This document shows positions 27 to 30,692 of a DNA stretch of 38,216 bases, one piece after another. The position numbers and the translations under genes were made by a program. The notes under the pieces are model-generated. The model was not told where the DNA came from. It did not search any database and worked only from the letters and a program-made list of their open reading frames with translations. This DNA is from an uncultured Anaerolineales bacterium. Its GTDB lineage: Bacteria; Chloroflexota; Anaerolineae; UBA7937; B3-Chlor. The stretch lies in the NCBI GenBank assembly GCA_964351925.1, contig CAYGQI010000001.1:30505-68720 (forward strand). The letters are read 5' to 3'. Each line of letters opens with the position of its first letter. The first letter of the stretch is position 1.

Positions 27-3000
27 ATGCCCGAGAAGTACGTCGAGCGTCAGGTAGCCGCAGCCGCGGAGAGGGTGTCCCAGACGGTGTCAGCCGAAGC
101 CACAACGTCTCTTCCTGTGGCTGTCACTCAGGCTGTTGTTCCTCCTGCGCCAAAGGTGGCTACACGTCTTTCAACAGAGGACTGGACTAGGGGAGTCAAG
201 GGAGCATCTTCGAAGGATGAGCTGCTCACTGCCTTGGACAACGGGCCTACCTTCAATGTCGAGAAGGTCGAGGGCCGCTTCCCGCCAGACCTACGAGAAG
301 GACGCTACATCCAGAGAGATCAGGCCGTGGCTCGTCTGGAAAGGGACGAGGCTGGTAAGCTGGTCAAGAAGAATGGCCGTTACACGATCCAGGTGGCCAT
401 GGGGATGGTGGACGAGGTTGAACTCACATCACTCAGACGAGTGTTGGCTCATGAGTGGGCACACTCTCTTGGCGATGCCATGCCCGTTGAAGTGGCGGCT
501 CTATGGAACGATGCCGAAGTCATGGCGGAGGATGTGCTCAGGTTCTTCAATGGAGAGCTGGATGAGACATCGGACGTCTATGCCCTAATCGCTGGCTTCG
601 CTTCTGACGAGCCAGACGAGTTCGCTGGTGTCATCACCTCGCTTCTTGGGCTGGCCACAGAGAAGGAAGCCAGAGCCAATGCTCGCAATATCTGGAGAAC
701 ATGGCTTCAGGCAACGCGGCCAGATGGCAAGTCGGTCCACTATCACTATGTCCAGACGACGTTCCGGGGACGTAGGGTGCTGGAGTCTCCTGAGACCTTC
801 ATGGAGTTCCTCGACAACTGGATCGGAGAGATGGAGCACTTGGGCATAGACGAGTCCAACATCGCTGCCATCCGCCAGCAGAAGATTGATCTTCAAGGCT
901 TCATGGACATGAAGTCGGCTAACGCGGCCTCCCTTGGCATCGAGCCTCCACCAATCTATCGTGGTTACTCACTGACGCAGCCGAGAGTCAATCGCTATGA
1001 CCCCGGCACGCTGACATGGCTGCTGGGCACACAGGATGCTCTGGCTCGTCAGAAGCTGTACGAGTCCATCTTGGACACGTGGTCAGGAGCACTCACGAAG
1101 CAGTTGGCCGAGAACCCATCTTTGGGCAAGCTGATGGCGGGTTCGGACATCGACATCATCAAGTCCCTACGTAATGGGTTCGTGGACAGCAAGGCCAACG
1201 CGGCCCGTATCGCCATGAATGGTGGTGAGCACCCAGCAATCGGTACTTGGAAGGGAGCCCTACCAAAGACCAACGAGTACATGCTGGACTACCAGACGTA
1301 CACGCGCTTCGATGAGTTCATGAAGAACCTGTACCCGTTCTGGATGTTCCCTAGCAGGTCGATCCCATTCTGGGTGAAGACGATGGCAGACCAGCCGTGG
1401 ATTCCGGCGATGTACTACAAGTACACTCGTTGGACGAACCAGAACCTGATCCAGAAGGGCATGTACAATTCTCTCGGAGAGCCTCTACCATCTAAGAGAG
1501 GCATGATGCGCATCCCAGGCACGGACATCTGGGTCAACCCGCTGTCTCCGCTGTCCTTCCGCTATGCCTTGATGATGTTTGACAGGTCATTCGAGTACTC
1601 GGGCGATGAGCAGCTGGAGAGCATGTCTATGGGAGAGCAGGTGGTTGGATGGTTGCAGACGGTTACGCGAGCCGCTGGCCTTGACATGCCATTCTGGATC
1701 ACCAGCCCAGCAGCTTTGGTGGGTATCATGGACGCCAACAAGCTGCCCACCTATCCGCCATACGCACCTTTGGCTCTCATCCCGCGCTGGTGGATAAACT
1801 CGATGGCCGACAAGGTGAAGGTGTTGGATGTGGTGTGGGACGGCTTCTTGCATCCCGACGTGCCTTGGAAGGACAGCAACGTTGAGCTATGGATACTCAA
1901 CGACATCCTACGCCGCTTCGATGAGGCTGTGACAGACACAGAGAAGATGGAGATCATCAAGGAAGCCAAGGAGGCTCTGGGCTACCGAGAGGACAGTAAG
2001 GGCAACTGGCACCTGGCTCCCCGCAAGGACAGTCCATACTGGAATCAGGCCGAGCATGAGGTGGACAAGAGCGAGTACTTCCAAGAGGTAGCAGGCTACT
2101 TCACTGGCATGTACCCACAGCCCTTCACGGATGCCCAGGCAAACATCTATGCTGTCCGCAGCTACAAGAACTTCCTGCGCGACATGATCAACAACGAGAC
2201 CGGAGCGAAGATTTTCGGGCTCGATCCGATCGCAGAGAACCGCTACAACAACTATGTCGAGAAGGGCTTCAAGTCCCCAATCGGACAGGTGGCCAGCCTA
2301 TACAACAACATGCGCTGGGTAATGACTCCTGGTGGAGAGCAGCTGTATGGAGAGGACCGTAGAAAGGCCATCGCTGAGAGCATTCATGAGGACGAGGCAA
2401 CATCCGCACGTTGGGACGCCATCAACGAGGCCAACGGTTGGCTGGACGCGCAGCTGAAGCTCATTCCTTTTGGGTCAGAGACTGCGGCTACCGAGGACAT
2501 CTGGACCAAGTGGTCAGAGTGGCGCGAGCAGATAGAACGCGACCCGATGTACGCCGACGCTCGCCGTAGCTGGTCCGTAGGCTACAAGCCCGAGTCGATG
2601 CTCTTCGATCAGTACCGTAGGCAGTTCTGGTCATACATCACAGAGACTCGCCCTCAGTGGGACAAAGAGAACGGAGAAGAGTACAAGGTATGGCAGGGCC
2701 GTATAGCGGAGTGGGAGAAGCAAATCCCGATGATTGCCCAGGCCATCATCAATGCCATGGTCTCTGAGAAGGTCGTTCCGTCTGTGGGTGGGCGAGAGGG
2801 AGCTCGCATAGTCCCAGGACAGTCCTTGCCGATCGCAGGCCGTCAGGGTTTCCAGCGTTACATCGACATCGACAAGTTGAAGACCAAGTTGCTGCAAGAG
2901 GCTACACCTTCTGGGTACCAGATGTGGTCGAAGGACAAGGCCACGTTGTACACTGCCATGGACAAGGCCTACGACGAGCTGTACCTAAACAAGTTCTGGG

Positions 3001-4097
3001 AAGGCCGTTCAGGCATGAAGGGCTATGCTCTGACAGCATTCGATGAGCAGTTCTTTGCGACCGTGAAGCCTCCGTCAGATCAAGCTATCATCGACTACGT
3101 CCTAACCAACTACCCAGGTCGCTGGACCGATGAGGAGATCGCGCAGGCTTTGGAGCACTCCGCGGGCAAGGTAACGGCGGAAGAGCGCATGGAGCCAACA
3201 ACCGAATACGAGAAGCAGGTACAGGAAGTCTGGGACATCCTCAACTGGGCTGGACCAAGTGCTGGTAGAACCAAGTTGGAGGCCGCTTTGTCGAAGGTCG
3301 GCGGCAATGTCGAGTCTGTCACCACGTGGTACGACACCAATGGAACATGGGGAGCAGACCAGAGCAACCCGAAGGTCAAGACCAAGTTTGAGGCGTTCCT
3401 GTCTGACCTCCGCCGCGCGGCTAATCTTCTGGACCTGAAGCCACCAACCGGGCCTCAGTTGCAGGAGTTGGTTCAGGCCGAGGCCGACAACAACGCTTTC
3501 AAGGCCCAGATCGCCGGACAGTATGGGGAAGGCTTCTGGGACCTACTGACGCTCTATGCCACGACGTCAGACAAGGCTGAGAAGAAGAAGGTTCGTCGGG
3601 AGAACCCCGAGATCGACGCCTACTACAAGGCCAAGGATGCCTACGCTCCCGAGCACCAGATTTGGGCCAAGTGGTACAACCCAGACCTGTATCGTGGGGA
3701 GGGGGGCGGCGGTGGAACAGCGGGAGGGGCTTGGTCTAGCCTCACCAATCCTAGCCGCGCGGCGAGGGCGGGTGCTCCGAAGGGCGGAGGTGTGGGCGGA
3801 GGAAAGTCCACTGTCTCTGCCAAGGGAAGTTGGGTGCCGATCGGCTTCCGCAGTGCCAACTATCTGACCAAGACAGGCTCCGGGGGCGCATCTGCCCAGC
3901 CGGTCTACCCGAAGGGCTTCCAGGCCGTTGTGGGGAAGCTGGCGATGAGGGAGATCGAGGGTCTGGCTGCGACCGGAGCGCCTCTGTCTGGACCTACAAC
4001 CCAGTTCCTACAGAACCTGATTGGCAGGCACCCAGATTGGCGGGAGTTCATCGAGTCCATTCTGAGCGACAGTCGCCGCTTGCTTTCGTCCGTGTAG
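27..4097 (+). CDS. Giant virion morphogenesis protein, probably portal-type or a portal fusion; the 5' end may lie upstream of the window
   Basis: 1356-aa ORF directly upstream of the scaffold and major capsid genes. The frame is open back to nt 3, so the start is uncertain. HEWAH (HExxH) at nt 450-464. Gly-rich tract near the C-terminus (GEGGGGGTAGG, GGGVGGGKS). Confidence 0.5.
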   Translation: MPEKYVERQVAAAAERVSQTVSAEATTSLPVAVTQAVVPPAPKVATRLSTEDWTRGVKGASSKDELLTALDNGPTFNVEKVEGRFPPDLREGRYIQRDQAVARLERDEAGKLVKKNGRYTIQVAMGMVDEVELTSLRRVLAHEWAHSLGDAMPVEVAALWNDAEVMAEDVLRFFNGELDETSDVYALIAGFASDEPDEFAGVITSLLGLATEKEARANARNIWRTWLQATRPDGKSVHYHYVQTTFRGRRVLESPETFMEFLDNWIGEMEHLGIDESNIAAIRQQKIDLQGFMDMKSANAASLGIEPPPIYRGYSLTQPRVNRYDPGTLTWLLGTQDALARQKLYESILDTWSGALTKQLAENPSLGKLMAGSDIDIIKSLRNGFVDSKANAARIAMNGGEHPAIGTWKGALPKTNEYMLDYQTYTRFDEFMKNLYPFWMFPSRSIPFWVKTMADQPWIPAMYYKYTRWTNQNLIQKGMYNSLGEPLPSKRGMMRIPGTDIWVNPLSPLSFRYALMMFDRSFEYSGDEQLESMSMGEQVVGWLQTVTRAAGLDMPFWITSPAALVGIMDANKLPTYPPYAPLALIPRWWINSMADKVKVLDVVWDGFLHPDVPWKDSNVELWILNDILRRFDEAVTDTEKMEIIKEAKEALGYREDSKGNWHLAPRKDSPYWNQAEHEVDKSEYFQEVAGYFTGMYPQPFTDAQANIYAVRSYKNFLRDMINNETGAKIFGLDPIAENRYNNYVEKGFKSPIGQVASLYNNMRWVMTPGGEQLYGEDRRKAIAESIHEDEATSARWDAINEANGWLDAQLKLIPFGSETAATEDIWTKWSEWREQIERDPMYADARRSWSVGYKPESMLFDQYRRQFWSYITETRPQWDKENGEEYKVWQGRIAEWEKQIPMIAQAIINAMVSEKVVPSVGGREGARIVPGQSLPIAGRQGFQRYIDIDKLKTKLLQEATPSGYQMWSKDKATLYTAMDKAYDELYLNKFWEGRSGMKGYALTAFDEQFFATVKPPSDQAIIDYVLTNYPGRWTDEEIAQALEHSAGKVTAEERMEPTTEYEKQVQEVWDILNWAGPSAGRTKLEAALSKVGGNVESVTTWYDTNGTWGADQSNPKVKTKFEAFLSDLRRAANLLDLKPPTGPQLQELVQAEADNNAFKAQIAGQYGEGFWDLLTLYATTSDKAEKKKVRRENPEIDAYYKAKDAYAPEHQIWAKWYNPDLYRGEGGGGGTAGGAWSSLTNPSRAARAGAPKGGGVGGGKSTVSAKGSWVPIGFRSANYLTKTGSGGASAQPVYPKGFQAVVGKLAMREIEGLAATGAPLSGPTTQFLQNLIGRHPDWREFIESILSDSRRLLSSV

Positions 4098-24190: not shown

Positions 24191-24389
24191 CAAGACACCA
24201 TGGAATGCCTTCATCATCTTGGATGAGGTCCTCGCCTCCTTTGGTGAATCTGGAGGAGGCGGTCCTAGTGGTGCAGCAATGCGAGTCCACTGGGGCAGGC
24301 TGGACAATCAGAGAGCTCATAGGCCAGGTGGAGGAGACTCAGTCTTCACCGCCGTTGCTGGAGCTACGAGGAAGAGGAAGAAGAGATGA
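24183..24389 (+). CDS. Hypothetical small ORF upstream of the endolysin
   Basis: 68 aa. ATGA overlap with the endolysin start. Low-complexity, basic C-terminus, no TM segment. Confidence 0.3.
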   Translation: MPSKTPWNAFIILDEVLASFGESGGGGPSGAAMRVHWGRLDNQRAHRPGGGDSVFTAVAGATRKRKKR

Positions 24390-25141
24390 TCCAAGGACAA
24401 GACTACTCACACTACAACGCCAAGGTGAACTTCCCGCTGGCCATCAAGAATGGTCAGAAGGTCTTCTACCTCAAGTCGTCCGAGGGCAACAACTGGAGCG
24501 ACGACACCTACGAGGAGAAGCGCCTGGCCTGCATCCCTACCAAGGCTCCCTTCGCTCCCTACCACTTCATGAAGATGGCCTACACGGCTGTCAGTCAGGC
24601 GGCATGGTTCAAGAAGTGTGCTCCAGACCCAACACCTCTTCCACCGATCGCAGACATCGAGCAGCACCCGGCTGAGCCGGACAACCTGCTCATCCCTATG
24701 GCCAAGAAGCGCTCACATGTACAAACGCTTCTCCTAGAGACCGAGAGGCTGTTTGGTCGCAGGCCCATTATCTACACTGGGGTCTACTGGTGGAAGGACA
24801 ACATCGGGGACGTGTCTTGGGCGAAGGACTACAAGTTCATCATCGCTGGCTACCTGTTCTTCAAGCAAGCCATCCCTGCCAACTTCAACATCTGGTGGCC
24901 AGGACCCCGCACCCTGTTCTACATCCCACGCGAGAACGTGATTGGATGGCAGTGGGCGGGCGACATCCCGAACATCAGCAATACCACATACCCCTGGTCT
25001 ACTGGAGCTCAAGACTTCAACGTGTTTGACGAAGTTCAGATCGCTGCTCTCGTGAGCGGCAGTACAGAGACGCCTCCGCTGACTGAGGCCGAGAAGCTTG
25101 ATCTCGTGTACAAGTGGTATCTCGAATCTCACGGAGGCTAA
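24386..25141 (+). CDS. Endolysin, glycoside hydrolase family 25 (muramidase)
   Basis: GQDYSHY (D-x-S-H-W/Y box), SSEGNNWSDDTY, APYHF, PPIADIEQ: the usual GH25 motif order. Confidence 0.75.
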   Translation: MIQGQDYSHYNAKVNFPLAIKNGQKVFYLKSSEGNNWSDDTYEEKRLACIPTKAPFAPYHFMKMAYTAVSQAAWFKKCAPDPTPLPPIADIEQHPAEPDNLLIPMAKKRSHVQTLLLETERLFGRRPIIYTGVYWWKDNIGDVSWAKDYKFIIAGYLFFKQAIPANFNIWWPGPRTLFYIPRENVIGWQWAGDIPNISNTTYPWSTGAQDFNVFDEVQIAALVSGSTETPPLTEAEKLDLVYKWYLESHGG

Positions 25142-25534: not shown

Positions 25535-25563
25535 TTGACAAACCTCAAAAAGAGGTGTATTCT
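25535..25563 (+). promoter_or_regulatory. Sigma70-like promoter for the tRNA array
   Basis: TTGACA (25535-25540), 17-nt spacer, TATTCT (25558-25563). The first tRNA starts at 25573. Confidence 0.55.
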
Positions 25564-25572
25564 TAGACAGTC

Positions 25573-25645
25573 CGAGGAATGGTGTAGACCGGGAGCACGC
25601 TAGCCCTGGGAGCTAGTGGCGGTGGTTCAAACCCACCTTCTTCGA
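25573..25645 (+). tRNA. tRNA-Pro(TGG)
   Basis: Acceptor CGAGGAA/TTCTTCG. D GTGT/GCAC. AC stem CTAGC/GCTAG, loop CCTGGGA (C33). T arm GGTGG-TTCAAAC-CCACC. Confidence 0.75.
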
Positions 25646-25647
25646 CC

Positions 25648-25720
25648 TGCGGGTTAAGTTGGAGTGGAACCACGGTGGCCTCATAAGCCGCGTAGACGAG
25701 TTCAATTCTCGTACCCGCTA
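25648..25720 (+). tRNA. tRNA-Met(CAT) type (Met, fMet or Ile2 not resolved)
   Basis: AC stem GTGGC/GCCGC, loop CTCATAA. T arm ACGAG-TTCAATT-CTCGT. Acceptor GCGGGT/ACCCGC with an unpaired 1:72 or an irregular acceptor-D junction. Confidence 0.6.
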
Positions 25721-25727
25721 CCTTCAT

Positions 25728-25799
25728 ACCAGAGTGGCGCAACGGTAGCGCAAGCCGCTGTTAACGGCGAGGTTGCAGGTCCGAATCCTGCCTTTGGTG
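25728..25799 (+). tRNA. tRNA-Asn(GTT)
   Basis: Acceptor ACCAGAG/CTTTGGT. D GCGC/GCGC. Loop CTGTTAA. T arm GCAGG-TCCGAAT-CCTGC. CCA encoded. Confidence 0.85.
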
Positions 25800-25847
25800 C
25801 CAAGAAGTCGAGTACCGCTTACCTTTACAACTGATCGGCAATAACAG

Positions 25848-25920
25848 GCCAGTGAAGCACAATCGGCAGTGCGGTCGCCCTGTAAGCGACAGGCAGTGGG
25901 TTCGACTCCCACCTCTGGCT
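25848..25920 (+). tRNA. tRNA-Thr(TGT)
   Basis: Acceptor GCCAGTG/CTCTGGC (one mismatch). D GCAC/GTGC. AC GTCGC/GCGAC, loop CCTGTAA (C33). T arm GTGGG-TTCGACT-CCCAC. Confidence 0.8.
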
Positions 25921-25988
25921 CCTGAGAGTTCTGCACATCAGCGTTGAAATCTGGCTGTTCTCACGGCGCGCTAAAGAGACAGCAACAC

Positions 25989-26060
25989 GCAGGCATGGGG
26001 TAAAGGATAGCCCAGCACCCTCCTAAGGTGCGTGTGAGCGTTCGAGTCGCTCTGCTTGCT
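25989..26060 (+). tRNA. tRNA-Arg(CCT)
   Basis: Acceptor GCAGGCA/TGCTTGC. AC GCACC/GGTGC, loop CTCCTAA. T arm GAGCG-TTCGAGT-CGCTC. Confidence 0.85.
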
Positions 26061-26064
26061 CCTT

Positions 26065-26136
26065 GCTTCTGTAGATAACGGACAGTCGCTCCGGCTTCTA
26101 ACCGGATGAGTGCAGGTTCGAATCCTGCCAGAAGCT
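26065..26136 (+). tRNA. tRNA-Arg(TCT)
   Basis: Acceptor GCTTCTG/CAGAAGC. AC TCCGG/CCGGA, loop CTTCTAA. T arm GCAGG-TTCGAAT-CCTGC. Weak D stem. Confidence 0.75.
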
Positions 26137-26202
26137 CCTGCCGGGGGTCTCTCTTTGAGAGCACGGCGTCCGAAATTCCCTCTGCCCCCGAGGGTCGGCT
26201 AC

Positions 26203-26273
26203 GCATCTGTAGGCTAATGGATGACCGTTGGGCCACGGACCCAAAGGTGAGCGTTCAAGTCGCTCCAGATGCT
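26203..26273 (+). tRNA. tRNA-Arg(ACG)
   Basis: Acceptor GCATCTG/CAGATGC. AC TTGGG/CCCAA, loop CCACGGA (C33). T arm GAGCG-TTCAAGT-CGCTC. Confidence 0.75.
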
Positions 26274-26317
26274 CCTGTGGAAATTGACAGAGTCACCACT
26301 CAAAGAACTGTCCACAC

Positions 26318-26389
26318 AGACTGTTCGTCTAGCGGCCAGGATAAGCGTCTCCAAAACGTTTGACGGGGGTTCGAGTCCCTCACGGTCTG
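26318..26389 (+). tRNA. tRNA-Trp(CCA)
   Basis: Acceptor AGACTGT/ACGGTCT. D GTCT/GGAT. AC AGCGT/ACGTT, loop CTCCAAA. T arm GGGGG-TTCGAGT-CCCTC. Confidence 0.8.
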
Positions 26390-26395
26390 CCTCGT

Positions 26396-26468
26396 TAGGT
26401 GGTGGTGTAACCGGCAAGCACAGTAGGCTGTGGACCTGCGGGAGAGGGTTCAAGGCCCTCCCATCTGA
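26396..26468 (+). tRNA. tRNA-His(GTG)
   Basis: Acceptor TAGGTGG/CCATCTG. D GTGT/GCAC. AC GTAGG/CCTGC, loop CTGTGGA. T arm GAGGG-TTCAAGG-CCCTC. The -1 position is T opposite A73, not G-1:C73. Confidence 0.8.
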
Positions 26469-26502
26469 CCTAGCAAGAATAGTCACTTAAAGTGACTACA
26501 AT

Positions 26503-26573
26503 GGTTCTGTGGCGTAACGGCAGCGCAACTCCCTGTCGAGGAGTAGGCGAGGGATCGACACCCTTCAGGACCG
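26503..26573 (+). tRNA. tRNA-Asp(GTC)
   Basis: Acceptor GGTTCTG/CAGGACC. D GCGT/GCGC. AC ACTCC/GGAGT, loop CTGTCGA. T arm GAGGG-ATCGACA-CCCTT (A54). Confidence 0.8.
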
Positions 26574-26578
26574 CCTTT

Positions 26579-26650
26579 GGGCGCGTGATGTCAACGGGAG
26601 CATGCTGCACCTGCAATGCAGCCGTGGGAGTTCAAATCTCCCCGTGTCCA
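26579..26650 (+). tRNA. tRNA-Ala(TGC)
   Basis: Acceptor GGGCGCG/CGTGTCC with the G3:U70 alanine identity pair. AC CTGCA/TGCAG, loop CCTGCAA (C33). T arm GGGAG-TTCAAAT-CTCCC. Confidence 0.85.
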
Positions 26651-26657
26651 CCTTCAT

Positions 26658-26728
26658 TCAAGAGTCGGCTAACGGTAGGCCGTAGGGCCTTGGACCCTAC
26701 TGTGGAGGTCCGAATCCTTCCTCTTGAA
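26658..26728 (+). tRNA. tRNA-Gln(TTG)
   Basis: Acceptor TCAAGAG/CTCTTGA (U1:A72). D GGCT/GGCC. AC TAGGG/CCCTA, loop CCTTGGA (C33). T arm GGAGG-TCCGAAT-CCTTC. Confidence 0.8.
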
Positions 26729-26733
26729 CCTAC

Positions 26734-26818
26734 GGAGTGGTGGCAGAGCGGCTGAATGCGCTTCCCCGCTAAGGAAGTTGGGGTAACTCCCACGTTGGTT
26801 CGAATCCAACCCTCTCCG
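26734..26818 (+). tRNA. tRNA-Ser(GCT)
   Basis: Acceptor GGAGTGG/CCTCTCC (one mismatch). AC CTTCC/GGAAG, loop CCGCTAA (C33). Long variable arm TTGGGGTAACTCCCAC. T arm GTTGG-TTCGAAT-CCAAC. Confidence 0.8.
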
Positions 26819-26824
26819 CCTCGT

Positions 26825-26894
26825 GGATGTATGGTGTAACGGTGCACGCATGACTGTAGATCATCAGGGCGTGGTTCGACTCCACGTGCATCCA
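26825..26894 (+). tRNA. tRNA-Tyr(GTA), short variable arm
   Basis: Acceptor GGATGTA/TGCATCC. D GTGT/GCAC. Loop CTGTAGA. 4-nt variable region. T arm CGTGG-TTCGACT-CCACG. A73. Confidence 0.75.
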
Positions 26895-26901
26895 CCTTCG
26901 A

Positions 26902-26972
26902 TCTCTCCTAGTGCAACGGTAGCACGCTTGGCTCTGAACCAAGTAATCTACGTCCGAATCGTGGGGAGAGAA
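26902..26972 (+). tRNA. tRNA-Gln(CTG)
   Basis: Acceptor TCTCTCC/GGAGAGA (U1:A72). D GTGC/GCAC. AC CTTGG/CCAAG, loop CTCTGAA. T arm CTACG-TCCGAAT-CGTGG. Confidence 0.85.
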
Positions 26973-26977
26973 CCTAT

Positions 26978-27050
26978 GCCGCTGAAGCTAACCCAGTGGA
27001 AGCGTCTGCCTGAAGAGCAGAAGGGGTCGGCGCGACACCGACTGGCGGCA
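26978..27050 (+). tRNA. tRNA-Phe(GAA)
   Basis: Acceptor GCCGCTG/TGGCGGC. AC TCTGC/GCAGA, loop CTGAAGA. T arm GTCGG-CGCGACA-CCGAC (non-canonical T-loop). Confidence 0.75.
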
Positions 27051-27056
27051 CCTTAC

Positions 27057-27143
27057 GGAAGAGCTAACATCGGTGTGTGCAGCCGTCTTGAAAACGGTAG
27101 TCCGGTGAAACCCGGATTGGGAGTTCAACTCTCTCCTCTTCCG
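27057..27143 (+). tRNA. tRNA-Ser(TGA)
   Basis: Acceptor GGAAGAG/CTCTTCC. AC GCCGT/ACGGT, loop CTTGAAA. Long variable arm with a CCGG/CCGG stem. T arm GGGAG-TTCAACT-CTCTC. Irregular D arm. Confidence 0.75.
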
Positions 27144-27148
27144 CCTCT

Positions 27149-27219
27149 GGCTTCTAGTCCGAACGGCTAGGAAGTCGCCTGCAAAGCGACCGTAGAGAGT
27201 TCGACTCTCTCAGAAGCCT
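27149..27219 (+). tRNA. tRNA-Cys(GCA)
   Basis: Acceptor GGCTTCT/AGAAGCC. AC GTCGC/GCGAC, loop CTGCAAA. T arm GAGAG-TTCGACT-CTCTC. Discriminator U73. Confidence 0.85.
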
Positions 27220-27225
27220 CCTCGT

Positions 27226-27300
27226 GCGCCCATAGGAGAATCGGCATATCCGCTGGTCTTAGAAACCAGGTCAATGGTGGTTCGAATCCACCTGGGCGTA
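27226..27300 (+). tRNA. tRNA-Leu(TAG), short variable arm
   Basis: Acceptor GCGCCCA/TGGGCGT. AC CTGGT/ACCAG, loop CTTAGAA. 6-nt variable region. T arm GGTGG-TTCGAAT-CCACC. A73. CCA encoded. Confidence 0.75.
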
Positions 27301-27381
27301 CCAAAAGGCCCTCGGAAGTACAACGGGTGGTCGGCACAACAGTGCCTTCTGGCTTGGGGACGCCAAAAACAATCCCCACCA

Positions 27382-27456
27382 GCATCCTGGCCGGTAAGGT
27401 GATCGGAGACTGTCTTATAAACAGTCCACAATCTGGTCCGATGCCAGAAGGATGCA
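27382..27456 (+). tRNA. tRNA-Ile(TAT)
   Basis: Acceptor GCATCCT/AGGATGC. D CCGG/TCGG. AC GACTG(T)/(A)CAGTC, loop CTTATAA. T arm TCTGG-TCCGATG-CCAGA. Confidence 0.7.
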
Positions 27457-27461
27457 CCTAT

Positions 27462-27532
27462 GGTCTCATCCGCTAAAGGGAGGCGAGCGGCCCCTCAAGC
27501 CGCAAATGCGATTTCGAGATTCGCTGAGACCA
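27462..27532 (+). tRNA. tRNA-Glu(CTC)
   Basis: Acceptor GGTCTCA/TGAGACC. D CGCT/GGCG. AC GCGGC/GCCGC, loop CCCTCAA (C33). T arm GCGAT-TTCGAGA-TTCGC with a U.U at the loop-closing pair. Confidence 0.7.
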
Positions 27533-27537
27533 CCTAC

Positions 27538-27610
27538 GTCACCATCGTCTAACGGTTCAGGATGGGACCCTTTCAAGGTCTGGATCGGAGTTCGAATCTC
27601 CGTGGTGATA
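27538..27610 (+). tRNA. tRNA-Glu(TTC)
   Basis: Acceptor GTCACCA/TGGTGAT. AC GGACC/GGTCT, loop CTTTCAA. T arm CGGAG-TTCGAAT-CTCCG. Confidence 0.8.
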
Positions 27611-27615
27611 CCTGC

Positions 27616-27687
27616 GCATTCGTAGCTGAGCGGTAAAGCAGTTCGTTGCCAACGAACAGATCGTGGGTCCAAATCCCACCGAATGCT
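27616..27687 (+). tRNA. tRNA-Gly(GCC)
   Basis: Acceptor GCATTCG/CGAATGC. AC GTTCG/CGAAC, loop TTGCCAA. T arm GTGGG-TCCAAAT-CCCAC. Confidence 0.85.
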
Positions 27688-27693
27688 CCTCGT

Positions 27694-27767
27694 GCCTGTG
27701 TAGCTCAATTGGTCAGAGCGCTTCTCCTACAAAGAAGAGGCTGGTGGTTCGAGCCCACCCAGAGGCA
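27694..27767 (+). tRNA. tRNA-Val(TAC)
   Basis: Acceptor GCCTGTG/CAGAGGC (one mismatch). D GCTC/GAGC. AC CTTCT/AGAAG, loop CCTACAA (C33). T arm GGTGG-TTCGAGC-CCACC. Confidence 0.8.
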
Positions 27768-27771
27768 CCTT

Positions 27772-27846
27772 GCTCTCATAGCCCAACATGGCAGAGGCGG
27801 CAGCTTCAAAACCTGTCCAGTGCTAGTTCGAATCTAGCTGGGAGCA
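27772..27846 (+). tRNA. tRNA-Leu(CAA), short variable arm (anticodon-arm register uncertain)
   Basis: Acceptor GCTCTCA/TGGGAGC. AC GCAGC/CCTGT (C31.C39 mismatch), loop TTCAAAA. An alternative fold gives a 9-nt loop. T arm GCTAG-TTCGAAT-CTAGC. A73. Confidence 0.6.
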
Positions 27847-28027
27847 CCTGCGGCTGAGACTCGGTGAAACGCCGAGGGAAGGGAGAACAAACCGGAAAGT
27901 AGACGGTCTCCTGTGCGTAAGTGGGAAACTCGACCCAGAGTAGCGAGGGTGTCCAGCGGTGAATGGGTATTGCCAGCGCAAGCCCCTACTGGGCGGTGAC
28001 ACCGAAACCCACCTTGAGGCCGCACAT
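27847..28027 (+). ncRNA. Unclassified structured RNA embedded in the tRNA array (not a tRNA)
   Basis: 181 nt between two complete tRNAs with no plausible + strand ORF. Terminal helix TGCGGC (27849-54)/GCCGCA (28019-24). Internal hairpins: CTCGG-TGAAACG-CCGAG (27860-76), GGAGA..CCG-GAAAGTAGA-CGG..TCTCC (27882-911), GGTGTC (27948-53)/GACACC (27998-28003) enclosing TTGC-CAGC-GCAA (27970-81). Confidence 0.5.
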
Positions 28028-28100
28028 GCTCTGCGAGCCAGTCGGTCGAAGGCACTCGTCTGATACACGAGTTTGCGTGGTTCAACTCCACGGCGGAGCA
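28028..28100 (+). tRNA. tRNA-Ile(GAT)
   Basis: Acceptor GCTCTGC/GCGGAGC. AC CTCGT/ACGAG, loop CTGATAC. T arm CGTGG-TTCAACT-CCACG. Confidence 0.8.
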
Positions 28101-28139
28101 CCTGTTTCAGTTGTTTAGCAATATTGCTAAACATCTCAT

Positions 28140-28211
28140 ACCAGCATAGCTCAGATGGAGAGCAAGCGGCCTTTACCCGCGAGGTCGGGGACCCGAGCCC
28201 CCCTGCTGGTA
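28140..28211 (+). tRNA. tRNA-Lys(TTT)
   Basis: Acceptor ACCAGCA/TGCTGGT. D GCTC/GAGC. AC (A)GCGG/CCGC(G), loop CCTTTAC (C33). Aberrant T arm GGGGA-CCCGAGC-CCCCC. Confidence 0.65.
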
Positions 28212-28218
28212 CCTAAAT

Positions 28219-28291
28219 GCTTCTGTGGCGCAATCGGCAGCGCAACCGGCCCTTAACCGGAAGGCTGGAGGATCATACCCTCCCAGGAGCA
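28219..28291 (+). tRNA. tRNA-Lys(CTT)
   Basis: Acceptor GCTTCTG/CAGGAGC. D GCGC/GCGC. AC (A)CCGG/CCGG(A), loop CCCTTAA (C33). T arm GGAGG-ATCATAC-CCTCC (A54). Confidence 0.75.
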
Positions 28292-28296
28292 CCTGT

Positions 28297-28369
28297 GCTT
28301 CGGTAGTTGAGTAGGCAAAACACCCCTTTCGTAAAGGGGAGGACAGAGGTTCGAAGCCTCTCCGAAGCT
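28297..28369 (+). tRNA. tRNA-Thr(CGT)
   Basis: Acceptor GCTTCGG/CCGAAGC. AC CCCCT/AGGGG, loop TTCGTAA. T arm AGAGG-TTCGAAG-CCTCT. Confidence 0.85.
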
Positions 28370-28455
28370 CCTTGGGTAAGGCTCCTAGCCGACACGGCAT
28401 CAGGCGCGGGGCTGACCGATGGGACATAACCGTGGATCACCCCATCTCCCAACAT

Positions 28456-28528
28456 GCCACTGTAGCTCAGCCGGTAGAGCGCCGACTCGGTAAGTCGGAG
28501 GCCGACGGATCATCACCGTCCTGTGGCT
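28456..28528 (+). tRNA. tRNA-Thr(GGT)
   Basis: Acceptor GCCACTG/CTGTGGC (one mismatch). D GCTC/GAGC. AC CCGAC/GTCGG, loop TCGGTAA (C33). T arm GACGG-ATCATCA-CCGTC (A54). Confidence 0.8.
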
Positions 28529-28533
28529 CCTAT

Positions 28534-28604
28534 GCGGGCTTGGTATATGGGTTGTGCCTCAGCCTTCCAAGCTGATGAAGCGAGTCCGAATCTCGCAGCC
28601 CGCT
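28534..28604 (+). tRNA. tRNA-Gly(TCC)
   Basis: Acceptor GCGGGCT/AGCCCGC. AC TCAGC/GCTGA, loop CTTCCAA. T arm GCGAG-TCCGAAT-CTCGC. CCA encoded. Confidence 0.85.
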
Positions 28605-28615
28605 CCAAGAAAGAG

Positions 28616-28650
28616 AAGACCCCAGGTTGTTTGCCTGGGGTCTTTTCGTT
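28616..28650. terminator. Bidirectional intrinsic terminator between the convergent tRNA array and the - strand operon
   Basis: AAGACCCCAGG-TTGTTTG-CCTGGGGTCTT: 11-bp perfect stem. TTTCGTTT follows on the + strand and a T-rich CTCTTTCTT follows on the - strand. Confidence 0.8.
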
Positions 28651-29415
28651 TCAGATCGACTTGCGTGTCCACTTGCTGTATGGCTCCAACTTCTGGAACA
28701 GGTTTTGGAGTATCTCGACGTCCTTCTTGTTGTGCTCCACGATGAAGCCCAGAGCAGTCTTATCTCCATACCCCGCCTCCATCCACAGTTCGATGTCAAC
28801 GTTGTCCTTCTCTCCGGTCTTGCCCTGCAAGCGCAAGAAGCGAGACACGGCTCCGAGATTGCGCCTGTGTAGTCTCAAGTTGGAGCGGGCGCGGTAGAAG
28901 AGATCGAAGTGGTAGATGGAACCATACTCTGGAAAGGGCAGGTCCCAGAACAGCGCACGGCTCCGCATGTATGGTATGTCGAAGCCGGTCCCATAGAAGG
29001 TGGCCACAATATGCACGTCCTGTATGGCCTCCAGCAGTTCGGTAACGATTCGCTTGTCTCGTAGCTTGGGGTCGGTACATTCTTTCGGCGTGATGATCCC
29101 ATGACGGGGCCTCTTCTCATCCTCAACCTTCATGAACCACGACAACATGAAGCCGTGATTGGCGGCTAGGTCGGTGGTCTCGATGTCAAGGAAGCCGATC
29201 TTCATGCCCTGCTTGCGGAACCAGGGGATAGCCCTCACCGGCACTTCCACGTCAGGGTCATTCTCGTGACGCATATCGTTCAGCCGGTTGGCTACCGATC
29301 GTTCAGTGCGGTCCATCCTGACCGCCATAGTCCTCTGGCTCAGGCCCTTCTTGAAGAGCCGCTTCAGTTCTCGTTCCTCCGCCTTCGTCCACTTCTTCGG
29401 CTTGTAGTCATCCAT
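28651..29415 (-). CDS. DEDDh (DnaQ/RNase H-like) 3'-5' exonuclease with an N-terminal Myb/HTH-like segment
   Basis: ExoI FLDIETTD, ExoII FYGTGFDIPY, ExoIII HNKKD. N-terminal WTKAEERELKRLFKKGLSQRTMAVRM. Confidence 0.7.
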   Translation of the reverse strand: MDDYKPKKWTKAEERELKRLFKKGLSQRTMAVRMDRTERSVANRLNDMRHENDPDVEVPVRAIPWFRKQGMKIGFLDIETTDLAANHGFMLSWFMKVEDEKRPRHGIITPKECTDPKLRDKRIVTELLEAIQDVHIVATFYGTGFDIPYMRSRALFWDLPFPEYGSIYHFDLFYRARSNLRLHRRNLGAVSRFLRLQGKTGEKDNVDIELWMEAGYGDKTALGFIVEHNKKDVEILQNLFQKLEPYSKWTRKSI

Positions 29416-29479: not shown

Positions 29480-29833
29480 CTAGGCCGGACGTGCGTCCTT
29501 TGCCACAGTTACGTCCTTGGCCTCCGGTAGCAATCCAAATGCTCCCTGTCCTGCTCCAATCGCAACCAACACGCCAAATGCGAAGTTCACAAAGGCGGAA
29601 GATGTCACGCATAGAAGCGGTAGTCCGAGGGCATTTGCGAATGCTGGGAAGCAACCTCCAAAGGCGACGATAGCACCAGCCACCAAGTAGATGCCCAAGA
29701 TGATGTACTTCTTGGTCTCCGTGGCCAGAGCTCCCCACTTCACACGCAGTCCCGGCACGTACTGGAACAGCAGCGTGAAGAAGAGAACCACGATAGTCGT
29801 GATCCCCGCAACAGAAAACAGTCCTTCAGACAT
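29480..29833 (-). CDS. Small multi-pass membrane protein (holin-like topology; function unknown)
   Basis: Start taken at MSEGLF (ATG 29833), which overlaps the upstream stop by 8 nt. Three to four hydrophobic segments. Confidence 0.55.
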   Translation of the reverse strand: MSEGLFSVAGITTIVVLFFTLLFQYVPGLRVKWGALATETKKYIILGIYLVAGAIVAFGGCFPAFANALGLPLLCVTSSAFVNFAFGVLVAIGAGQGAFGLLPEAKDVTVAKDARPA

Positions 29834-30692
29834 ATTCAGCCTCCTGTGCCTGTTCGGCAACTACTTCTATTGTAGCAGGTTTCGGTCTCGCAATCAACGT
29901 GATATCGGACGTGAGGTGAGGCAGATAGGGGTCCATCGTGACTCCAACCCATATCACCTCGAAGCCCGCACGCTCCGCGAGGAACTTCAGCGTCTCTGGC
30001 AAGAATGCCCCTACATGTGGCAATCCAAGAACTCTCGACGGACGACCAGTCAGATGTGGGATGTCGATGACCAAGTAACCTGTACTCTTCAGTCTGCTCT
30101 TAAGTGAGAGCAAGTAGTCGTAGGGCTCCACGATGTGCTCAAGGACATGCAGCGAGCTTACCACGTCCCACATGTCATCAGCGGCATCACCGAGGCTTGG
30201 GCGCACTTCTAGGCGCTTGTCCAAGCACATCTTGCGTGTATTGTCGTTGGGCTCAATGCCAATGGCATGGGCTCCCTCCCCATACTGCTTCCAGACATGC
30301 TCAAGTAGCTCACCTGACCCACATCCCACATCGAGCCACCAGAAGATGTTGGGCAGCTCCATCCCCGCCTCTTTGGCATACCTCAGCACACGCTCGGCTC
30401 TCTGTCTCTCGAGGATGATGTCCATTGGACGCAGGCCCTCACGCATGCCATTGTTGGTCACGGTGCGGTACTCCTTCTCATAGAAACGCTTCATGCTTTC
30501 CTCGTCCAGCGTGCTCCCCTGAAAGACCATGCCGCAGTCGGGACAGGCGATGTAGAAGATCATGATGTAGGGCTTGACGCGGCCCTCCATGGATGAGCCA
30601 TACACCACGAAGGCCCCATCCGACTTGCCGCAGGCCGGGCAGTGTGTGCGCTTCTCCCAACTCCACTTGAGTGTCTGCTCACCCTCTGTCAT
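29826..30692 (-). CDS. Class I SAM-dependent methyltransferase with an N-terminal zinc ribbon
   Basis: Motif I WWLDVGCGSGE. HVLEH block. N-terminal CPACG...(x24)...CPDCG. Confidence 0.7.
   Translation of the reverse strand: MTEGEQTLKWSWEKRTHCPACGKSDGAFVVYGSSMEGRVKPYIMIFYIACPDCGMVFQGSTLDEESMKRFYEKEYRTVTNNGMREGLRPMDIILERQRAERVLRYAKEAGMELPNIFWWLDVGCGSGELLEHVWKQYGEGAHAIGIEPNDNTRKMCLDKRLEVRPSLGDAADDMWDVVSSLHVLEHIVEPYDYLLSLKSRLKSTGYLVIDIPHLTGRPSRVLGLPHVGAFLPETLKFLAERAGFEVIWVGVTMDPYLPHLTSDITLIARPKPATIEVVAEQAQEAEYV

Follow-up and report, generated by a model that had tools for sequence, protein, structure and literature searches.

A phage-borne operon of transfer RNA (tRNA) genes, in which the conserved uridine 33 is often replaced by cytidine, lies within a 38,216-nt stretch of DNA (hereafter the window) from an uncultured Anaerolineales bacterium (GenBank assembly GCA_964351925.1, contig CAYGQI010000001.1). 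The operon comprises 31 genes on the forward strand (25573–28607), covers all 20 amino acids and spans 3,035 bp, a density of some 10 tRNAs per kb. Few nucleotides in biology vary as little as U33. In the window, position 33 is C in ten tRNAs aligned to a covariance model and in one further probable tRNA, and U in the remaining 20 of 31; this is about 12 times the C33 rate in other phage tRNAs. An earlier note on this DNA had described a coordinated U33C change across a third of the array, an overstatement in that the loss of conserved uridines is broader and C33 only a part of it. The reading that we rank first, with a probability of roughly 0.4, is that these replacements may confer a lineage-specific advantage by altering how proteins recognize the conserved uridines.

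Position 33 in the tRNA array

Genes were called with ARAGORN, which returned 28, and with the Rfam model RF00005, which returned 26 at its gathering score and Ile-GAT in a local search (41.8 bits), for a union of 30. In all, 27 of the 31 tRNAs reach the 29-bit gathering score; Ser-TGA, Cys-GCA and Ile-TAT were found by ARAGORN only, and Phe-GAA (26978–27052, forward strand) by Rfam only. In the RF00005 alignment a C stands opposite model position 33, with top posterior probability, in Pro-TGG, Thr-TGT, Arg-ACG, Val-TAC and Lys-CTT, and likewise in Thr-GGT, Lys-TTT, Gln-TTG, Ser-GCT and Ala-TGC, ten tRNAs in total. The structures drawn by ARAGORN agree on C33 for eight of these ten; Lys-TTT is undetected by that program. 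The earlier note had counted C33 in eleven of 31 tRNAs and proposed that covariance models be used to confirm the loop register. All eleven loop strings were correct as quoted, and the alignment places C, not U, at position 33 in ten of the tRNAs, while the eleventh, Glu-CTC, is only a probable gene.

All of these genes lie on the forward strand. Pro-TGG (25573–25647; loop CCTGGGA, C33 at 25606) is the first gene of the array. Thr-TGT (25848–25922; CCTGTAA, C33 at 25880) also has A8, and further on come Arg-ACG (26203–26275; CCACGGA, C33 at 26234) and Ala-TGC (26579–26652; CCTGCAA, C33 at 26611), the latter with the G3:U70 pair. Gln-TTG (26658–26730; CCTTGGA, C33 at 26689) additionally carries C55, and Ser-GCT occupies 26734–26820 (CCGCTAA, C33 at 26767). 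Further downstream are the probable Glu-CTC (27462–27534; CCCTCAA, C33 at 27493), Val-TAC (27694–27769; CCTACAA, C33 at 27727), Lys-TTT (28140–28213; CCTTTAC, C33 at 28171), Lys-CTT (28219–28293; CCCTTAA, C33 at 28251) and Thr-GGT (28456–28530; TCGGTAA, C33 at 28488). Lys-CTT and Thr-GGT each have an A54/U58 swap, and Lys-TTT, which scores 43.2 bits with Rfam, has the aberrant T loop ACCCGAG. The Rfam alignment agrees with the earlier statement that both Lys tRNAs are C33. The 5-bp anticodon stems that had been assigned throughout do not extend to these two, which have 4 bp plus a 27:43 mismatch (A.G or A.A), although the register was right.

In the Val gene at 27694–27769, ARAGORN shifts the anticodon stem by one base and takes a C.A mismatch to keep T33, which results in a call of Cys-ACA; by the perfect 5-bp stem and the Rfam model, the gene is Val-TAC and has C33. 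The same kind of mislabelling of C33 tRNAs is to be expected from annotation pipelines. Glu-CTC was not reported by ARAGORN or by Rfam, even at E<=10, and its T arm contains a T53.T61 mismatch. Its minimum free energy (MFE) fold is a perfect cloverleaf with the loop CCCUCAA (z = -2.67), the N73-CC-T tail of the array is present, and the gene lies between Ile-TAT and Glu-TTC, as in a homologous array described below. Fold and synteny thus point to a probable tRNA gene.

At least seven sequencing runs yielded independent assemblies of this phage. The tRNA array is 100% identical in five independent assemblies and differs by one single-nucleotide polymorphism in two others, so C33 is not an assembly error. 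Being identical or nearly so, these sequences make variation between assemblies uninformative about the array.

C33 in viral control tRNAs

As a viral control we scanned IMG/VR for Val-TAC tRNAs whose D arm is canonical and whose loop has U33, which gave at least 120 loci chosen regardless of C33. Among the matches listed, 119 loci had tRNAs called by ARAGORN, and 36 of their 1,347 tRNAs are C33 (2.7%), with A or G in six more. No control locus among these matches has more than three C33 tRNAs, and this also holds for the 31 of them that have 15 or more tRNAs. The binomial probability of observing 10/30 at a rate of 2.7% is 3.8e-9, and the strong enrichment of C33 is statistically extreme for a phage.

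The enrichment holds when registers are validated (36.7% C33 in the window against 3.0% in the viral controls, p = 2e-9) and when only genes found by ARAGORN are counted (9/28, p = 2e-7). ARAGORN disfavours C33, so that the background is somewhat underestimated; the program still found nine of the eleven C33 genes in the window. G+C pressure was considered as a sufficient cause and rejected, since viral loci of at least 55% G+C have C33 at 2/82.

Loss of other conserved uridines

The replacements extend to the tRNA core. Relative to the register-validated viral control, U8 is lost in 6/30 window tRNAs (20% against 5.9%), U33 in 11/30 (36.7% against 3.0%), T54 in 5/30 (16.7% against 2.4%) and U55 in 7/30 (23.3% against 2.2%), six of the last being C. 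Substitution of U8, T54 and U55 is thus 3–10 times as frequent as in other phage tRNAs. Together these four positions are depleted about sevenfold, and about a quarter of the conserved uridines are replaced. Deviations at G18G19, Y32, R37, C56 and R57 number 0/30, and A14, A21, G53, A58 and C61 deviate at most about fourfold over the control, none significantly. The two tRNAs that have lost A58 (Lys-CTT and Thr-GGT) are both compensated A54/U58 swaps, an arrangement found in about 1% of the phage and bacterial tRNAs surveyed (29 of ~2,580). The pooled odds ratio is 9.1 for conserved U against 1.7 for conserved non-U positions, and the effect holds with ARAGORN-detected genes only.

C55 occurs in the forward-strand genes for Asn (25728), Gln (26658 and 26902), Ile (27382) and Gly (27616 and 28534), and A54 in those for Asp (26503), Lys (28219) and Thr (28456). 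The T loops of Phe (26978) and Lys (28140) are aberrant, and position 8 is not U in Thr (25848), Phe (26978), Ser (27057), Cys (27149) and two Ile tRNAs (27382 and 28028). The acceptor, anticodon and T stems are all intact. In long bacterial arrays erosion is general, and deviations amount to 14% at GG18/19, 7% at C56 and 1.9% at T54. Erosion in the window is instead specific to uridines and does not resemble simple relaxed selection.

A homologous array with U33

The only homologous tRNA array that we found lies on the 96-kb IMG/VR contig IMGVR_UViG_3300005821_000002 (L093). It contains 27 tRNAs in one orientation and shares with the window the block Ile-TAT / Glu-CTC / Glu-TTC / Gly / Val-TAC ... 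Lys, Lys. The tRNAs of the two arrays are 55–83% identical pair by pair, and the variable arm of Ser-GCT is nearly identical. The two arrays also have an unusual gene end in common. In the window, 28 of 31 tRNAs end in N73-CC followed by T rather than CCA, with every non-A position 76 being T, and only Asn, Leu-TAG and Gly-TCC encode CCA. The same N73-CC-T end is present in 22/27 tRNAs of L093, and among 134 loci with at least eight tRNAs it is otherwise confined to the window array. Maturation of the 3′ end may therefore be unusual, for instance by trimming back to CC before A is added.

Despite these similarities, U33 is present in 27/27 tRNAs of L093, among them the counterparts of all ten C33 isoacceptors of the window, and positions 54 and 55 are canonical as well. 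The locus also differs in G+C content (44% against 57% in the window) and in its phage backbone, with no common flanking genes found. Across orthologous tRNAs, C33 is found in 10/26 in the window and 0/26 in L093 (Fisher p = 0.0007). The C33 states of the window are therefore derived, or at least lineage-specific. The earlier note had proposed a comparison with related phages; in L093, C33 is not conserved in the same isoacceptors. Between L093 and the window, position 33 changed from T to C in 10/26 tRNAs and from T to A or G in 0/26, against 22/97 and 26/97, respectively, at unpaired, non-conserved T sites. Position 33 is thus held as a pyrimidine. At stem sites 41% of nucleotides differ between the two arrays, with pairing kept by compensatory change.

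Searches for further members of this array family with patterns from the Ser-GCT variable arm and the Val D arm matched only L093. A Thr-GGT pattern with the A54 T loop had no match in IMG/VR and one on a 1.5-kb Joint Genome Institute (JGI) contig of 32% G+C (L314). The Thr-GGT on this contig is 81.6% identical to that of the window and keeps both C33 (TCGGTAA loop) and the A54/U58 T loop, the differences lying in the stems.

Decoding capacity

The earlier note had suggested a replacement tRNA set, and the set is complete: it covers all 20 amino acids and, under simple wobble rules, at least 83% of phage codons. Codons read by C33 tRNAs only make up 26%, including the heavily used AAG, ACC/ACT and GAG, and for Pro, Ala, Val and Lys the sole phage tRNAs are C33. 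The tRNAs retain their anticodons, R37 and identity elements such as G3:U70. In three data sets degeneracy, as judged by stem mismatches and other deviations, is no greater among C33 than among U33 tRNAs, and in the window the Rfam scores of the two groups overlap. By these features the tRNAs look functional.

C33 is not enriched in tRNAs that decode ANN codons and would carry N6-threonylcarbamoyladenosine (t6A), at 5/12 against 6/19 for the others. Q-family tRNAs have U33 in 4/4, which is not significant (P ~0.15).

C33 in other viral and bacterial tRNAs

The C33 loop CCTACAA of Val-TAC occurs on 59 viral contigs (L015–L073, the complete IMG/VR list). The 52 viral C33 Val-TAC genes fall into 33 sequence clusters, four of them mixed, so that this variant arose or persisted many times. 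It is also found on at least 120 bacterial genome contigs (L194–L313), mostly at small loci in metagenome-assembled genomes (MAGs) of Clostridia and Bacteroidales and in a few isolates. Among the matches listed, Val-TAC is the sole C33 tRNA of the small chromosomal loci (0/187 others). In many of the Clostridia and Bacteroidales MAGs, and in isolates such as Fructilactobacillus florum and Prevotella sp. KH2C16, this C33 gene is apparently the housekeeping copy, a pattern that makes C33 compatible with housekeeping function.

A dozen of the matches listed are long arrays of 15–37 genes within less than 6 kb, from Acidobacteriota and Actinomycetota, in which 10–35% of tRNAs are C33. Examples are L244 (7/20), L308 (7/25), L279 (7/30) and L266 (7/37), in all of which the 5-bp anticodon stems are perfect and the Rfam scores good; the others are L258, L218, L273, L294, L304, L228, L260 and L313. 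C33 is most frequent there in Val-TAC, Ala-TGC, Ile-GAT, Gly-GCC and Pro-TGG, and its state flips between related arrays. C33 rises from 0/187 at small chromosomal loci through 2.7% in phages to 14% in long bacterial arrays when Val is excluded from the latter.

Two further observations concern the bacterial loci. The L308 array, from a Pyrinomonadaceae MAG, contains a GOLLD RNA (RF02032, 176 bits; L308:1714-2193), whose internal tRNA-like part ARAGORN reports as an odd tRNA. A Ro60-type vWA protein (L228:1120-2739) adjoins the C33-rich array of a Bryobacterales genome.

Array organization and phage context

A putative sigma-70-like promoter, TTGACA-17-TATTCT (25535–25563, forward strand), which matches the consensus at 10/12 positions, lies 10 nt upstream of the first tRNA. 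Between the operon and a convergent exonuclease gene lies an 11-bp G+C-rich hairpin (28616–28644), assigned to neither strand. It was scored on the reverse strand, and on the forward strand TTTTCGTTT comes next; it is likely a bidirectional terminator. With its co-oriented genes, one promoter-like site and one terminator-like hairpin, the operon is a tRNA array unit, or L-array, as defined by at least 20 genes at a density of at least 2 per kb (PMC4758250). The array had previously been ended at 28528 and actually reaches 28607.

The U33 tRNAs, likewise on the forward strand, are Met(CAT) and Asn(GTT) within 25648–25802; Arg(CCT) and Arg(TCT) within 25989–26138; Trp(CCA), His(GTG) and Asp(GTC) within 26318–26575; Tyr(GTA), Gln(CTG), Phe(GAA), Ser(TGA), Cys(GCA), Leu(TAG) and Ile(TAT) within 26825–27458; Glu(TTC) and Gly(GCC) within 27538–27689; Leu(CAA) and Ile(GAT) within 27772–28102; Thr(CGT) at 28297–28371; and Gly(TCC) at 28534–28607, the last gene of the operon. 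One Ile tRNA has a genomic TAT anticodon (27382–27458), and there is a single CAT tRNA (25648–25722; Rfam 31 bits), which may be an initiator, an elongator Met or an Ile2 tRNA. Spacers without a tRNA call are 25923–25988, 26139–26202, 27304–27381, 27849–28027 and 28372–28455. The fourth of these, a 179-nt spacer between Leu(CAA) and Ile(GAT), folds into a structure closed by a 7-bp terminal helix (MFE -67.3 kcal/mol, z = -2.0); Rfam has no match for it, and a degenerate tRNA or some other small RNA is possible.

By its gene content, the source of the window is a tailed phage. Genes around the array encode a major head (capsid) protein, minor tail proteins, DNA polymerase A and a UvsX/RecA-like recombinase, and the window further encodes a UDG, a PD-(D/E)XK nuclease, a GH25 lysin and an RNase H-like exonuclease. 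The array sits where the structural and lysis module converges with the replication module. Its insertion site is flanked on the left by the GH25 lysin (24386–25141, forward strand) and on the right by the RNase H-like 3′-5′ exonuclease (28651–29415, reverse strand). Homologues of the lysin (55–66% identity) and of the exonuclease (42–53% identity) lie on contigs without tRNAs, so C33 states cannot be traced through relatives of the phage backbone. Absent from the contigs with the nearest homologues of the flanking genes and matched by a homologous array on an unrelated phage contig, the array is a horizontally acquired block.

No near relative of the phage was found by megablast against the 50,697 deposited phage records of INPHARED, capsid and polymerase matches have at most 32% identity, and capsid peptide patterns had no match in IMG/VR. 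The nearest named homologue of the lysin (63% identity) is on a phage-like 46-kb contig (L321) binned as Thermoleophilia (Actinomycetota), which is the only hint of a host, and a weak one.

A methyltransferase gene at 29826–30692 (reverse strand), two genes from the array, was considered as a partner of the tRNAs and rejected, as an array-less relative (L008) keeps the gene. Its product, a class I S-adenosylmethionine methyltransferase, has a zinc-ribbon-like segment at the N terminus and matches the CmoB family (PF08003) weakly; it is probably unrelated to the tRNAs. The first open reading frame of the window (27–4097, forward strand), upstream of the capsid gene and without a PHROG match, encodes the C-terminal portion of a giant protein whose length is 2,332 residues or more (cf. 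L318–L320). Groundwater phage contigs related through the exonuclease gene carry Ro60/TROVE genes (L010:124-1704 and L011:404-1987).

Discussion

We propose that a single operon, running from a promoter-like site to a terminator-like hairpin, encodes 31 functional-looking tRNAs and entered the genome as one block, between the lysis and replication modules, where it would provide the phage with its own decoder for every amino acid. This lineage appears to have selectively replaced conserved uridines, namely U33 by C (11), U55 mostly by C (7), T54 (5) and U8 (6), while all other conserved features and the helices were retained. The C33 tRNAs should still decode, as a pyrimidine occupies position 33 throughout and the apparently housekeeping Val-TAC of many bacteria is C33. 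The replacements would be favoured, or released from counter-selection, by changing how uridine-reading proteins see the tRNA. The first candidate for such a protein is a nuclease or toxin that, like PrrC and RloC, cuts the anticodon loop next to U33; the second is a modification enzyme, for example E. coli TsaBCDE, which is unable to modify a U33C tRNA. The sequences show the base at each position, the enrichment, the derived state of C33 and the specificity for uridines; expression, function in translation and any resistance are inferences.

Nuclease escape by C33 is plausible. PrrC cleaves 3′ of U33 (PMC2610378), and PrrC and RloC both cut at the 33|34 junction, but the searched literature contains no report of C33 as a substrate of PrrC. 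U33C abolishes t6A formation by E. coli TsaBCDE (PMC8887486), so C33 can blind an anticodon-loop enzyme. That phage tRNAs escape cleavage through loop substitutions had been presented in the earlier note as a published idea, and it is (PMC10264068), although position 33 is never mentioned there. Nor is position 33 mentioned in the literature that we searched on tRNA arrays and phage-tRNA counter-defence. Phage tRNA variants that resist PARIS are established experimentally (PMC12409363).

Several points weigh against an advantage through altered recognition. Cleavage by gamma-toxin is unchanged by U33C (PMC2275089), colicin E5 needs merely a pyrimidine at 33 (PMC1635277), and the searched literature shows no nuclease that requires U33 over C33. 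The cleavage determinants of PARIS and Schlafen lie in the stem, the known escape determinants of phage tRNAs are at positions 39–41 or 30–31, and Tyr, His, Asn and Asp, the classic colicin E5/retron targets, keep U33 here. U8, T54 and U55 are buried in the folded tRNA, so that one nuclease accounting for all four positions is not obvious. The number of tRNAs with at least one deviation (21/31) is close to the ~20.8 expected by chance. Position 33 flips between related Acidobacteriota arrays at the rate of an average site (14.8–16.7%), and the isoacceptors that carry C33 disagree across data sets, with the window set not matching those prone to C33 elsewhere. Finally, change from T to C at position 33 is no slower, and not significantly faster, than at free sites that stay pyrimidine (38% against 31%, P = 0.26).

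Several of these points also bear on near-neutral drift, which we rank a close second. If position 33 of accessory, horizontally moving tRNA sets requires only a pyrimidine, C33 could be neutral or slightly deleterious, without a dedicated function, and could have accumulated here by chance, weak selection and a shift to higher G+C. The absent isoacceptor pattern, the average-site rate in Acidobacteriota, the unremarkable rate of T-to-C change, the gradient of C33 from small loci to long arrays and the repeated origin of C33 Val-TAC all fit drift, as do the G+C difference from L093 and published U33C mutants that stay substrates or functional in several systems. Drift is harder to reconcile with the absence of C33 from the 27 tRNAs of L093 and its 2.7% rate in phages, which indicate that U33 is normally held and that a lineage-specific factor is needed. 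High-G+C viral loci are not enriched, 26% of phage codons are read exclusively by C33 tRNAs, and the erosion is confined to uridines, with G18G19, C56, R57, R37 and the helices kept, unlike in bacterial arrays. A bolder variant of altered recognition, which we consider rather unlikely, is that the phage marks its own tRNA set by replacing U8, U33, T54 and U55, which would make it invisible to a uridine-dependent tRNA-inactivating activity. Such a self/non-self code in the invariant tRNA core could evade a host defence tRNase or toxin of broad range, or else the host-shutoff enzyme of the phage itself, and the C33-rich arrays of soil bacteria would represent a related strategy.

It is quite unlikely that the phage mirrors a local norm, in which host tRNAs or the host translation and modification machinery already use C33, C55 or A54. 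Housekeeping C33 Val-TAC in many Clostridia and Bacteroidales MAGs and some isolates would agree with this, as would the Thermoleophilia-binned lysin homologue, given that some Actinomycetota are without 5-methyluridine at position 54. In genomes with C33 Val-TAC, however, only Val is C33 among the matches listed, and among these the scan showed no bacterial lineage with widespread C33. About as unlikely, in our view, is that the variant genes are not decoders and represent either copies in decay or tRNA-like decoys that titrate a tRNase. The aberrant T loops of Lys-TTT, Phe and Glu-CTC and the low or sub-threshold Rfam scores of several genes lean this way, and the authors of the PARIS study speculate that viral tRNAs might act as inhibitors (PMC12409363). 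Intact stems with compensatory changes relative to L093, preserved anticodons, R37 and G3:U70, the equal degeneracy of C33 and U33 tRNAs and the four amino acids served by C33 tRNAs alone argue the opposite. C-to-U editing that restores U33 in RNA, leaving the mature tRNAs canonical, is very improbable. Such editing of tRNA exists at other positions in other organisms, but we know of none at position 33, it has no sequence-based support, and the phage sequence covered (the window and just beyond) contains no deaminase gene. It would also leave A54 and the A or G at position 8 unexplained.

What is new is the extent of the pattern, that is, conserved-uridine loss in a complete tRNA set together with C33-rich arrays in soil bacteria. 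Phage and mobile tRNA arrays are already known as elements, and nuclease escape through C33 would be a reasonable extension of a published idea. A complete, apparently working set with a third of its tRNAs C33 and about a quarter of conserved uridines replaced is a natural experiment on the roles of these uridines. If resistance is real, the idea of counter-defence would extend from isoacceptor-specific stem and loop changes to the universal tRNA core, and the arrays would offer ready-made C33/U33 pairs for cleavage and translation assays. For surveys, C33 amounts to ~3% of phage tRNAs and 10–35% in some bacterial arrays, and ARAGORN can misassign such genes.

The array can be compared with three known systems. 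The eukaryotic cytoplasmic initiator tRNA-Met is a natural, functional C33 tRNA, in which C33 alters recognition by the t6A enzyme (PMC8887486). It is a single initiator species of multicellular eukaryotes, whereas the window has eleven bacterial-type elongators for nine amino acids, and its Met-CAT is U33. Long bacterial arrays resemble that of the window in that 20 or more tRNA genes point the same way, at a density above 2 per kb, and are horizontally acquired and supernumerary; they differ in their general erosion with T54 kept, in mostly encoding CCA and in their chromosomal contexts. The third system comprises phage tRNA clusters with a proposed or demonstrated role in counter-defence, namely those of mycobacteriophage cluster C1, T5 tRNA-Lys/Thr/Asn against PARIS and T5 tRNA-Tyr against retron Ec78. 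They too belong to lytic-type phage sets with anticodon-arm substitutions, and the PARIS targets Lys and Thr-TGT are variant in the window. Their protective changes lie at or beside cleavage sites (36–41, or stem positions 39/41) and never at 33, whereas the window, known from sequence alone, has changed universally conserved uridines across many isoacceptors.

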